The position numbers were made by a program, and so were the translations under genes. From an uncultured Candidatus Saccharibacteria bacterium (GTDB lineage: Bacteria; Patescibacteriota; Minisyncoccia; 2-02-FULL-40-12; IGHO2-01-FULL-4-A): a DNA stretch of 29,613 nucleotides. The DNA lies in the NCBI GenBank assembly GCA_964360715.1, contig CAYHYQ010000001.1, positions 2,547-32,159 on the forward strand, given 5' to 3'. The notes under the pieces were generated by a model that saw nothing but the letters and a program-made list of their open reading frames with translations, was not told the DNA's origin and ran no database searches. Shown one piece after another: positions 5,389 through 9,850 of the stretch (within the stretch, counting starts at the first letter, position 1; each line of letters opens with the position of its first letter).

Positions 5389-6666
5389 TTAAGAATTCGG
5401 TTGCGTGTCGGGGGCGTCGTTGACGAGTGTTTGTACATCGGTATCGGCGATTTCAGGATCAGCCAAAGATTCAGAGGCCGAGAGCGCGGATTGCGGGGCG
5501 CGGACATCTATTTTCCAGCCGGTAAGTTTCGCGGCAAGACGTACATTTTGACCTTTTTTACCAATAGCCAACGAGAATTGGTCTTCGGCAACTTCGGCTA
5601 AAGCGTGTTTTTGCTCTATACTCAAGATCTTCACACCGATAATTTTTGCCGGTGAGAGTGATTGCGAGATATAGCGTTCGGGTAATTCATTCCATTCTAT
5701 AATGTCTATTTTTTCACCGTTGAGTTCGTTGATAACTGTTTGTACGCGCACACCTTTCTGGCCGACGAGTGAGCCGATCGGATCAACGCCGTCTTCGTGA
5801 GAGATTACCGCGATCTTTGAACGTGAACCGGCTTCGCGCGCAATCGCTTTAATTTCAACGGCCCCGGTTTCGATTTCAGGCACTTCAAATTCAAAGAGTT
5901 TCATAACTAGACGCGGGTGAGCCCGCGAGAGATACAAAACCGGTCCCTTGCTTGTCTGTTCAACGCGTACTAATAAAAATCGCAGACGCTGATTAAGGCG
6001 GTAACTGTCGGAATAGAGTTGTTCCGTGGGCAATAAGATGCCATTCGTACGGCCTAGATCAATATAGATAATCCGACCCTCAATGCGCTGGACTAAACCT
6101 GACACAATCATACCTTCTTTCTCTTTGAATTCTTCGAAAATCGCCTCACGTTCAATTTCACGCAAACGCTGAATCACAACCTGCTTGGCCGTCTGCGCCG
6201 CAATACGACCGAAATCTGATTTTGGTTCGAGGTTGGTAATAACGCGCTCGCCGACTTTTGGATTCTTTATTGCCTCCTTAGCTTCATCAATCGTAATATA
6301 TTTCTCCGGATTGTATTTTACTTTTATCCGACCCTGCGCGTCGGTAATGACATCGGTATCTTCCACGGCAACGCCACGCGCGCTGACACGTTCAGCATGC
6401 TGTTTATCTTCTTCAACTACCGGTAATTCTCCGGTAACATAGCCGTCGGCGTCAAATCCTTCGACGACGATGCGCGCGCGTGATATCGCAACATCACCGG
6501 TCTCACGGTCGAGTTTCGCTTTTATGATCTGACTCTTCTCGCCGTAATCGCGCTTATACGCGGCGGCAATGGCCTCCTCAACGGTGCTTAATATTTTTTC
6601 TTCTGGAATACCCTTCTCGTCGGCAATCTGTTTAATGGCCGATAGGAATTGTTTTGCGTCAAACAT
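5389..6666 (-). CDS. nusA: Transcription termination/antitermination factor NusA
   Basis: FGRIAAQTAKQV, S1 domain, AREAGSRSKIAV, DPIGSLVGQKGVRV, SLAIGKKGQNVRLAAKLTGWKID. Likely start is MFDAKQF at 6666 rather than 6729. Confidence 0.96.
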   Translation of the reverse strand: MFDAKQFLSAIKQIADEKGIPEEKILSTVEEAIAAAYKRDYGEKSQIIKAKLDRETGDVAISRARIVVEGFDADGYVTGELPVVEEDKQHAERVSARGVAVEDTDVITDAQGRIKVKYNPEKYITIDEAKEAIKNPKVGERVITNLEPKSDFGRIAAQTAKQVVIQRLREIEREAIFEEFKEKEGMIVSGLVQRIEGRIIYIDLGRTNGILLPTEQLYSDSYRLNQRLRFLLVRVEQTSKGPVLYLSRAHPRLVMKLFEFEVPEIETGAVEIKAIAREAGSRSKIAVISHEDGVDPIGSLVGQKGVRVQTVINELNGEKIDIIEWNELPERYISQSLSPAKIIGVKILSIEQKHALAEVAEDQFSLAIGKKGQNVRLAAKLTGWKIDVRAPQSALSASESLADPEIADTDVQTLVNDAPDTQPNS

Positions 6667-6917: not shown

Positions 6918-8597
6918 ATGAATTCACCGCAGACCAATACTACTCCAGGCCAAAATCTCGAGATAGAGCTTGATAAGAAACTTGTGGCCATGCAAAATCA
7001 GCGTCTCGAGGAGGCGGCGCAAGCACGCGCCCAAATACAGGGTGTTAAATACGCGAATTTACAAATTTTTCCCATTGATACGTCATCGGTTTTACTCTTA
7101 TCGGAAGATGAAGCCCGCCGTGGCCAATTAGCAATCATCAACAAAAAAGCATCATCATTGACGGTTGCCGTTCTTGATCCACAACAAGCTGAAACTCAAG
7201 CCGTACTTAAAATGCTCACCGACAAAAATTTTACATGTAATCTTATAATTGTTTCCGAGTTAGGCCTTGCCAAGGCCTGGGAACGTTATCGAATCAGCAC
7301 AAAAAAGGATACTAGTCAGACAGGTGTTGTTCAGCTTGATCAAAATGCCATTGATACGTATCAAAAAGGCATTAGCACGCTCAAAGATCTCAAAGAGCGT
7401 ATTGTTAATCTGCCTGTTACACAGATTGTGGACATGCTTATCGCCGGCGCCCTAAAAATCGGCGCATCCGATATACATTGGGAACCGGAAGAAAAGGCGG
7501 TTCGTTTGCGTTATCGTCTTGACGGCGTCCTGACCGACGTTATTGATTTCCCGCACACAACGTATCCCAATATCTTGAGCCGGTTGAAGCTTGTCTCGGG
7601 TATGAAACTTAATGTCCGTGACCGGCCGCAAGATGGCCGTTTTACCATCCGGCAAAAGGATATTGATATTGAGGTGCGTGTTTCAATTTTGCCCGGCGCC
7701 TATGGTGAAGGCATCGTCATGCGTATCCTCGATCCACGCACCATCCGCCAACGATTGGAAGATTAAGGCATGCGTTATGATACACTCGAAACAGTCAAAA
7801 AACTGCTTCAAAAAACAACCGGAGCCATTCTCACGACCGGGCCGACCGGTTCCGGTAAAACAACCACGCTCTATGCGTTTGTGAAATTCGTAAACAATTC
7901 TGAAATGAAAGTTATAACCGTTGAAGATCCGATCGAATACTATATCGAGGGCATTACGCAAACACAGGTTGATGCTGAAGCGGGCTACACATTCGCCGGT
8001 GGCTTGCGCGCAATCGTCCGCCAAGACCCCGACGTCATACTTATTGGTGAAATGCGTGACAAAGAAACGGCCGAGATTGCCATGCAAGCGGCGCTAACCG
8101 GCCATCTTGTATTTTCAACAATTCACACCAACAACGCCGCCGGCACCGTGCCGCGCCTAATTGATCTTGGCGTAAAGCCCCAATCAATTGCACCCGCCAT
8201 TAATGCCATGATGGCGCAACGTCTGGTGCGACGCCTTTGTCAAAAATGTAAAAAACAACAAAATCCAATCGCTGATGATTTGGCCATTCTCAAAAAATAT
8301 CTGGACCCCATCGCCACACAATTTAAACTGCCGTCCCTCGATGAAAATTTACAAATTTCATATCCGATTGGTTGTGACGAATGCAATACTCTAGGATACA
8401 AAGGCCGTATCGGTGTCTATGAAATTATTGTGATGAACGATGAGCTTGGCCGATTAATTCTACAATCGCCCGCTATTTCACAGATTCAGGATATAGCTTT
8501 GAAGAACAACCTTATAACCTTATTGCAAGACGCTTTAATGCGCGTTGTGAGTGGCATTACTTCAATGCAGGAGGTTATGAATGTTATCGGCGAATAG
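6918..8597 (+). pseudogene. pilB: Type IV pilus/T2SS assembly ATPase PilB/GspE interrupted by an in-frame TAA (7764-7766)
   Basis: ORFs 6918..7766 and 7770..8597 are in the same frame and join as RQRLED*GMRYD (family pattern L-x-x-LG). Intact IHWEP, DRPQDGRF, Walker A GPTGSGKT, EDPIE, RQDPDVILIGEMRD, STIHTN, and CxxC...CxxC zinc motif. Confidence 0.9.
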
Positions 8598-8600
8598 TAA

Positions 8601-8770
8601 TTTAAAACCACAGTGATCTGTAGGCAAAACCCGAAGATGCAACCCCGGGGTTAGAGTAATACTGAGGTATACTCCAGTCGGAACCAGAATACCCGTCTGC
8701 GAAATTACTCCGATTAAGGCCAGCCAATAAAGGAAGGCCCTAATTGCCTACAGATCACTGCGGTTTTAAA
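8601..8770 (-). ncRNA. Candidate structured ncRNA (or MITE-like element), 170 nt
   Basis: Terminal inverted repeat 8601-8627/8744-8770 (26/27) enclosing several internal stems; six A-C oppositions on the plus strand become G-U on the minus strand. Confidence 0.55.
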
Positions 8771-8812
8771 GATAATAACCTCTTTAGAGGCAGTGTATAA
8801 AGTATAACTCAT

Positions 8813-9850
8813 ATGCAAAAATATGTCAAGAACTCCAATTCTGCGCGACCGGTAGCCGCCCAAACGACCGATGACGATATCGCTCTTGATCTAGCCCTGC
8901 GCCCCAGGGGTTTTGAGGAGTATATAGGTCAGGATAAGACCAAGCAAAACCTTGCCATATTGATTGCCGCGGCCAAAAAGCGGAATGAAGCACTTGAGCA
9001 CATACTTATCCATGGTCCCTCGGGTCTTGGCAAAACAACTTTGGCTTATATCATCGCCCGAGAATTTGGCGCGGGCATACGCATTACATCGGGTACCGCT
9101 TTAGAGAAAGCCGGTGATGTCGGTTCCATCCTAACTGGTCTTTCCGATGGCGATTTTTTGTTTATTGATGAAGTTCATCGTCTTAATAAGTCGGTTGAGG
9201 AAACACTTTATCCGGCGATGGAAAATTATACGCTCGACATCATTATTGGCAAAGGCGCCTCGGCAAAAACTCTGCAAGTCAAACTACCGCGCTTTACACT
9301 GATTGCCGCGACAACACGGCTTTCACTCTTATCCAATCCGTTCCGCACCCGCTTTGGCGCGCATTACAAACTCGATTTCTATGCAAACGCCGACATCGCT
9401 GAGATTGTAAGACGTTCGGCAATTATGCTGGACATTAAAATTGAAAACGAGGCCTTGCACTTAATCGCCGCGTCAGCGCGTGCGACACCCCGTATCGCCA
9501 ATCGGCTTTTAAAGCGCGTCCGCGACTACGCTCAAGTGTACGATATAGCACCCATCAATATTGAAGCCGTTACAAAAGCGCTCTCATTATTAGGTATTGA
9601 TTCGCTGGGACTCGATACGACGGACCGTAAAATCTTGTCCGTACTCGTGCAGATATTTAATGGCGGACCCGCCGGCCTGAAATCTATCGCCGCGGCAACC
9701 GGTGAGGAAGAAAGCACCGTTGAAGATGTTTATGAACCGTATCTCATGCAACTCGGTTTCTTGACGCGTTCAGCAAAGGGCAGGATAATTACAGATAGCG
9801 GTCGTGCGCATATCGGCGTCATAAATCCTGCACAGTCACGACTTATATAA
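8813..9850 (+). CDS. ruvB: Holliday junction branch migration ATPase RuvB
   Basis: LRPRGFEEYIGQ, HGPSGLGKTT, LFIDEVHRL, FTLIAATTR, TPRIANRLLKRVRD, EDVYEPYLMQLG. Confidence 0.98.
   Translation: MQKYVKNSNSARPVAAQTTDDDIALDLALRPRGFEEYIGQDKTKQNLAILIAAAKKRNEALEHILIHGPSGLGKTTLAYIIAREFGAGIRITSGTALEKAGDVGSILTGLSDGDFLFIDEVHRLNKSVEETLYPAMENYTLDIIIGKGASAKTLQVKLPRFTLIAATTRLSLLSNPFRTRFGAHYKLDFYANADIAEIVRRSAIMLDIKIENEALHLIAASARATPRIANRLLKRVRDYAQVYDIAPINIEAVTKALSLLGIDSLGLDTTDRKILSVLVQIFNGGPAGLKSIAAATGEEESTVEDVYEPYLMQLGFLTRSAKGRIITDSGRAHIGVINPAQSRLI

Follow-up and report, generated by a model that had tools for sequence, protein, structure and literature searches.

6S RNA (SsrS; Rfam families RF00013 and, for 6S-Flavo, RF01685) is the product of a single-copy, housekeeping-type gene with a strong sigma-70 promoter; it is ~150-190 nt long and combines a long closing stem with a long, bulged distal helix. 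The same features recur in an RNA-like element at positions 8601-8770 of the window, by which we mean the entire 29,613-nt stretch of contig CAYHYQ010000001.1 that was analysed. The element is located between the stop codon of pilB and the start of ruvB and almost certainly represents a gene on the minus strand for a folded RNA of ~175-195 nt. Unlike that of 6S RNA, its centre is a junction with two closed side hairpins rather than a single-stranded bubble. It has neither the GGGAG...ACCCAC signature nor a match to the 6S covariance models, and many genomes of its order and class contain both this RNA gene and a canonical 6S gene.

Other described RNAs show more limited similarities. In the case of the Y RNAs (YrlA) and Rsr (Ro60), the two ends of the molecule likewise pair into a long stem that closes a multi-arm, tRNA-like module; by contrast, the pilB-ruvB RNA yields no match with Rfam or ARAGORN, and among five RNA-carrying genomes, TROVE/Rsr is present only in that of the window and missing from the other four, so that an identity as Y RNA was rejected. 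The raiA, OLE, ROOL, and HEARO RNAs were likewise recognised solely by conserved, covarying structures within a restricted range of taxa, and their functions were not known at discovery. The pilB-ruvB RNA matches none of them in Rfam 15 and differs also by its unusually strict synteny and a promoter that is interlocked with a neighbouring gene. Rfam 15 has no match on the element (E ≤ 10) or on 20 divergent homologous loci (E ≤ 1), as anticipated in a preliminary description of the sequence, which had assigned the element to no known family. Literature searches found no description of a four-way-junction RNA between pilB and ruvB. Judged from the sequences, the RNA appears to be an uncatalogued family that is specific to the class Paceibacteria (Parcubacteria) and fits no described mechanism.

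A conserved four-way-junction RNA

The element is delimited by an outer inverted repeat (8601-8627 vs 8744-8770), whose complementarity of 26/27 was reproduced on recomputation. Its single A-C opposition (8610/8761) becomes a G-U pair on the minus strand. The predicted minimum free energy (MFE) is lower for the minus strand (-88.1 kcal/mol) than for the plus strand (-69.5 kcal/mol), with z-scores of -10.1 and -8.7, respectively, and none of 200 shuffled sequences folds equally well. The core of the structured RNA (8599-8772, minus strand) matches the covariance model of the family with 158.4 bits.

In the minus-strand MFE structure, the closing stem P1 pairs a 5' strand (8745-8769) with a 3' strand (8602-8626) over 25 bp and is followed by a U-rich run to ~8598, which together form a predicted intrinsic terminator. 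Arm 1 (8713-8744) is a hairpin of 9 bp (8744-8736/8721-8713) with a 2-bp tip. Arm 2 (8653-8711) is a long helix composed of a base of 8 bp, a central part with bulges, and a tip of 10 bp that ends in the loop UCCG (8682-8679), whereas arm 3 (8630-8649) is a simple 7-bp hairpin (8649-8643/8636-8630; CCCGGGG/CUUCGGG). The preliminary description agrees with this structure for P1, for arms 1 and 3, and for the base of arm 2, but not for the inner part of arm 2: the hairpin that it placed at 8661-8678 is an artefact of the plus strand, and the conserved arm is one long bulged helix.

Homologues were sought in 105 genomes of the order, which comprise the family of the window (f1; 26 genomes) and the families f2 (8), f3 (62), and f4 (9), in 151 genomes of the class, and in ~145 genomes from other classes of Patescibacteria. 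BLASTN detected one copy in the assembly from which the window was taken (810 kb) and, in most of 60 relatives, a single related sequence. The homologues each fold independently into the same four-way junction, with linkers of only 0-4 unpaired nt and, including that of the window, a P1 of 25-30 bp. The covariance model R1, for which 29 homologues with 44 consensus pairs were aligned, has one match in 101 of the 105 genomes of the order (54.6-181.7 bits, most >110), whereas the reverse strand of the same loci reaches only 40-53 bits. The model matches also 83 of the 151 genomes of the class but none of the ~145 genomes from other classes, three of which lack a pilB-ruvB spacer. In the class members missed by the model, the same spacer and strand still hold a TTGACA...TATAAT promoter and a long-stem RNA. 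Public sequences confirmed with R1 are labelled Yanofskybacteria, Paceibacterota, Minisyncoccia, Parcubacteria, Portnoybacteria, and Azambacteria; a loose genome-wide pattern scan gave mostly chance matches, and the covariance model confirmed 19 true ones.

There is strong evidence of covariation. Compensatory changes affect 24 of the 44 pairs already in the 29-sequence alignment; among 62 distinct sequences, 37 of the 44 pairs change on both sides, and 95.6% of the cells form standard pairs. None of 500 shuffled controls reaches any of these measures, and sliding of the pairing partners leaves only 35-49% of the cells paired. This bears out the RNA-like element proposed in the preliminary description.

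Sequence conservation is unevenly distributed over the structure. The outer part of P1 covaries freely, whereas its inner 10 bp (CUGUAGGCAA) are nearly invariant. Arm 1, which lies outside the R1 model, varies in sequence and length (4-14 bp) among homologues but covaries with many compensatory changes, so that the hairpin is formed from very different sequences; in nearly all homologues, arms 1 and 3 are closed hairpins, with arm 1 small or missing in a few. Arm 2 is the best conserved part of the RNA, with tandem G-U pairs in its tip (UGGU-UCCG-ACUG) and one invariant G-U pair in its base (GGAGUA/UACUCU). Conservation extends from pairing to sequence in the inner P1, in the bulged central part of arm 2, and in the tandem G-U block of its tip, and ~26 positions are invariant across the class. 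The family is defined by a long P1 with the CUGUAGGCAA core, three arms, the arm-2 tip UGGYUYCGRCUGG, a strong promoter, and a location on the opposite strand between pilB and ruvB, all of which are present in the window.

Strand and transcription signals

The strand of the gene is most evident from its wobble pairs. The preliminary description had noticed that A-C oppositions on the plus strand become G-U pairs on the minus strand, and this bias holds across the family: over all pairs of the 62 distinct homologues, 395 cells are G-U and only 44 are A-C. Three G-U pairs are invariant or nearly so (columns 109/138, 108/139, and 74/162 of alignment A3, with G-U in 62, 57, and 58 of the 62 sequences, respectively). 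Both the asymmetry and the near-invariance of these pairs indicate that pairing has been selected in an RNA of the minus strand.

The same strand carries a conserved promoter. In the window, a -35 box (TTGACA, 8824-8829) located inside codons 4-6 of ruvB is separated by 17 nt from a -10 box (TATACT, 8801-8806), so that the promoter (8829-8801) matches the consensus at 11 of 12 positions. The -10 box overlaps a TATAAC motif of the plus strand (8803-8808), 5 nt before the ATG of ruvB. An upstream match of at least 10/12 is present on the RNA strand in 54 of 58 homologous loci, with 11/12 in 40 loci and 12/12 in 11 loci. Transcription would start near 8794, and the predicted primary transcript extends from there to ~8598, which corresponds to ~197 nt with a 170-nt core.

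At its 3' end, the 10 nt that follow P1 contain on average 5.1 T, compared with 3.2 expected from composition, and at least five T are present in 33 of the 58 loci. The mirror position on the other strand shows no T enrichment. The restriction of the U tract to the RNA strand indicates that P1 and the U tract form the RNA's own terminator, and a general role as a bidirectional terminator is therefore unsupported. Covariation, G-U asymmetry, and the conserved promoter and U tract all speak for what the preliminary description had suggested, namely a single-stranded minus-strand RNA with a four-way junction that is antisense to both neighbours.

Directly after the predicted transcription start, the minus strand holds a short leader hairpin (8778-8791; 5 bp, 4-nt loop) that is followed by a U-rich run and resembles a terminator. 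Leader-like hairpins of the type AAUCCC-loop-GGGAUUUU occur in many relatives but not in all.

Possible role of the RNA

On balance, we consider it probable that the gene encodes a stable, trans-acting RNA that binds a partner and that its promoter competes with the initiation of ruvB. An independent, single-copy gene on the minus strand would be driven by the near-consensus sigma-70 promoter, and its transcript (~8794 to ~8598) would be ended by its own closing stem and U tract. The RNA would then act in trans by binding specifically to a conserved protein, for which it may serve as a scaffold, subunit, or decoy. Conservation of both sequence and pairing in helices and bulges is usual for RNAs that are read by a specific protein, and such a partner is suggested by the segments with conserved sequence, namely the inner P1, central arm 2, and the G-U block of its tip. 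As a secondary effect in cis, use of the RNA promoter and initiation at ruvB are likely to be mutually exclusive, because the ruvB ATG lies in the promoter spacer and the TATAAC motif of the plus strand overlaps the -10 box of the RNA.

More tentatively, the RNA may be a dedicated subunit or decoy of an unrecognised ribonucleoprotein needed by all Paceibacteria, a possibility that we regard as rather doubtful. If true, it would add a further housekeeping RNA to rRNA, tRNA, RNase P RNA, tmRNA, and 6S RNA. Such a subunit or decoy may have a functional link to its constant neighbours; given its four-way junction, it could, for example, engage the Holliday-junction machinery (RuvA, RuvB, and RuvC) or one of the two flanking hexameric motor ATPases. 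A replacement of RuvA by the RNA, or a RuvB that works without RuvA, was rejected, since all five genomes tested encode RuvA at another locus.

Several points weigh against a trans-acting RNA of this kind. The sequencing runs that contain the locus are exclusively DNA runs of groundwater metagenomes, and one run of unspecified type yielded no sequence of it; we therefore infer expression, transcript ends, and abundance from the signals described above. The protein partner is putative. A perfect 25-bp duplex is normally a substrate of RNase III, and since P1 would suit this enzyme, the mature form of the RNA may differ from the fold presented here. In the copy of genome G024 (L017, G024:C9:3634-3770), arm 1 and the inner part of the 5' strand of P1 are missing, which reflects either a natural deletion or a misassembly. 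Finally, the strict synteny with ruvB and pilB would fit also a mainly cis-acting role.

The latter is the most serious competitor, even though we consider it unlikely. Here, a promoter interlocked with the start of ruvB would throttle this gene by occlusion or head-on collision, the transcript would pair with read-through RNA from pilB to ruvB, and the fold would serve only for stabilisation and termination. The arrangement of the genes lends this idea some credit. In the window, the RNA gene stands head-to-head with ruvB (8813-9850, plus strand), whose ATG falls into the spacer of the RNA promoter, and the -10 boxes of both genes overlap; it is convergent with the gene of a PilB-type T2SSE ATPase (6918-8597, plus strand), whose stop codon (8595-8597) adjoins the 3' end of the RNA. 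The order of pilB (convergent), RNA, and ruvB (divergent) is kept across the 57 loci examined, one of which lacks ruvB, and in several relatives P1 extends up to or even into the pilB stop codon. An in-frame ATG of ruvB lies within the span from the -35 to the -10 box in 29 of 52 loci and otherwise ~5-25 nt outside that span (loci inspected individually), that is, inside or beside the RNA promoter in nearly all loci. By contrast, P1 alone would suffice for stability and termination, whereas three more arms, the invariant G-U pairs, the bulges, and ~26 invariant positions have been kept throughout the class, which is typical of an RNA that is recognised by a partner.

The candidate phyla radiation (CPR; Patescibacteria) represents a large share of bacterial diversity, and to our knowledge, almost nothing is known about its RNA biology. 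A single-copy RNA with a consensus promoter that is kept by nearly every member of the class very likely has a core function; these bacteria devote ~200 bp of their tiny genomes to a hitherto undescribed type of RNA, which is physically interlocked with the start of the recombination gene ruvB. The RNA is a well-defined target for pull-down experiments, structure determination, and metatranscriptomics.

Relationship to 6S RNA

The similarities to 6S RNA raise the question of whether the RNA, in the manner of 6S RNA, is a regulator that attaches to the RNA polymerase holoenzyme as a mimic of open promoter DNA. The two share their approximate size (~175 nt), an extended closing stem and distal arm, a single gene copy, a strong promoter, and a wide conservation. 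Moreover, RF00013 detects no 6S RNA in the 26 genomes of the window's family, neither at the pilB-ruvB locus nor elsewhere. The structure, by contrast, is a tight four-way junction with linkers of 0-4 nt and without an open bubble, which in its closed form bears no resemblance to an open promoter, and neither the element nor the 20 homologous loci match any 6S model of Rfam.

The decisive evidence against a 6S orthologue comes from the presence of true 6S RNAs at other loci of the same class, order, and family. RF00013 identifies convincing 6S RNAs in 22 of 151 genomes from other classes of Patescibacteria (7 above the cut-off) and in 7 of the 151 genomes of the window's own class (G113 above the cut-off), all of which fold into rods that have an open bubble and carry the GGGAG...ACCCAC signature. 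In five of the seven members of the class (G113, G156, G200, G172, and G126), the four-way-junction RNA is present as well, at a different locus. A 6S model specific to the class (R2) reveals one 6S RNA in 34 of the 105 genomes of the order (30/62 in f3 and 4/9 in f4), always on a contig or at a position different from that of the four-way-junction RNA, and 35 of the 40 pairs in the 6S alignment of the order change on both sides. A core model with 95 positions (R3) adds one further 6S RNA in the window's own family (1/26 genomes); it looks genuine, and its genome, G006, also carries the pilB-ruvB RNA.

The 6S RNAs of Paceibacteria are thus canonical but diverged and mostly below the cut-off of Rfam (L233-L252; examples are G113:C1:126974-127144, G063:C20:9698-9824, and G006:C56:3712-3832). 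With RF00013, R2, and R3, no 6S RNA was found in the other genomes of f1, in f2 (0/8), or in the genome of the window, whose assembly is 85.7% complete; in these genomes, the 6S RNA may be diverged, lost, or unassembled. The occurrence of canonical 6S RNAs elsewhere in genomes that carry the pilB-ruvB RNA documents that the two are different genes, and the status of a 6S orthologue is rejected by this co-occurrence at separate loci. A 6S-like mode of action of the pilB-ruvB RNA is very improbable. With 6S identity excluded, the sole ready-made explanation is gone.

Riboswitches and mobile elements

The succession of a promoter, a multi-arm junction, P1 with its U tract, and a convergent pilB without a spacer would be compatible also with a ligand-sensing, riboswitch-like RNA. 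In such an RNA, P1 would double as the terminator and as the helix that closes the sensor, and would thereby control antisense transcription that reads through into pilB. Antisense control by riboswitches occurs in other bacteria. With 25-30 bp, however, P1 is much too stable for switching, conservation is concentrated in helices and bulges instead of the junction loops, and no alternative anti-terminator pairing was seen, which leaves this interpretation with hardly any likelihood. A conventional riboswitch in the leader of a co-oriented gene was rejected on the grounds that the downstream pilB is convergent and by the length of P1.

The long terminal inverted repeat with TTTAAA at both ends had given rise to the suggestion of a miniature inverted-repeat transposable element with a target duplication, but this or an incidental terminator palindrome can practically be dismissed, because there is only one copy in the window's own genome and one orthologue in each of 101 of the 105 genomes of the order, in the same slot in 57 loci and across the class, covariation keeps RNA pairs (including G-U) on one strand, the RNA has its own conserved promoter, and TTTAAA is simply the palindromic outer end of the P1 stem.

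Other housekeeping RNAs

None of the other housekeeping RNAs that were considered accounts for the pilB-ruvB RNA. A tRNA was rejected, as ARAGORN finds nothing at the element; so was RNase P RNA, of which each of the five genomes tested has a copy on another contig. The same applies to tmRNA, which scores above the cut-off elsewhere in four of five genomes, whereas the window's own genome has only weak tRNA-like matches.

The RNA of the signal recognition particle (SRP) was an attractive candidate, because the order has no detectable SRP RNA: RF00169 has no match above the cut-off in 26 genomes (one weak match, E = 0.35), and RF01854 has none in five genomes. It was rejected because Ffh- and FtsY-type domains are missing too. 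The M domain of Ffh (PF02978) was found neither in five genomes of the order nor in 151 genomes sampled across the phylum; the SRP54 GTPase (PF00448) has no match above the cut-off in five genomes of the order, which include one closed genome of 100% completeness (one weak match, 18 bits); and TIGR00959 and FtsY-type domains were not found in the genomes searched. The controls for these protein searches gave a match in 14 of 14 cases. The phylum-wide lack of the Ffh M domain (0/151) indicates that its absence does not track an RNA that is limited to one class. A loss of SRP, with which these results are consistent, has been published for Parcubacteria only (PMC4508563).

Additional features of the locus and genome

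The pilB gene of the window is split by an in-frame TAA (7764-7766) at a position that is occupied by a leucine codon in 12 relatives (TTA to TAA; LEDLGMR to LED*GMR). The stop is either a nonsense mutation or an assembly error. The downstream open reading frame (ORF; 7770-8597) has a Pfam match to T2SSE, and an ATG two codons past the TAA could restart the ATPase half of the protein.

The only Rfam and ARAGORN match in the window is a tRNA-Lys (CUU) at 516-589. Outside the window, the same genome encodes a TROVE/Ro60-like ORF of 642 amino acids (G000:C21:6402-7280). Weak tRNA-like matches (C21:5377-5450 and 5526-5542) are located ~1 kb upstream of this ORF, and the region may represent an Rsr and Y-RNA locus.
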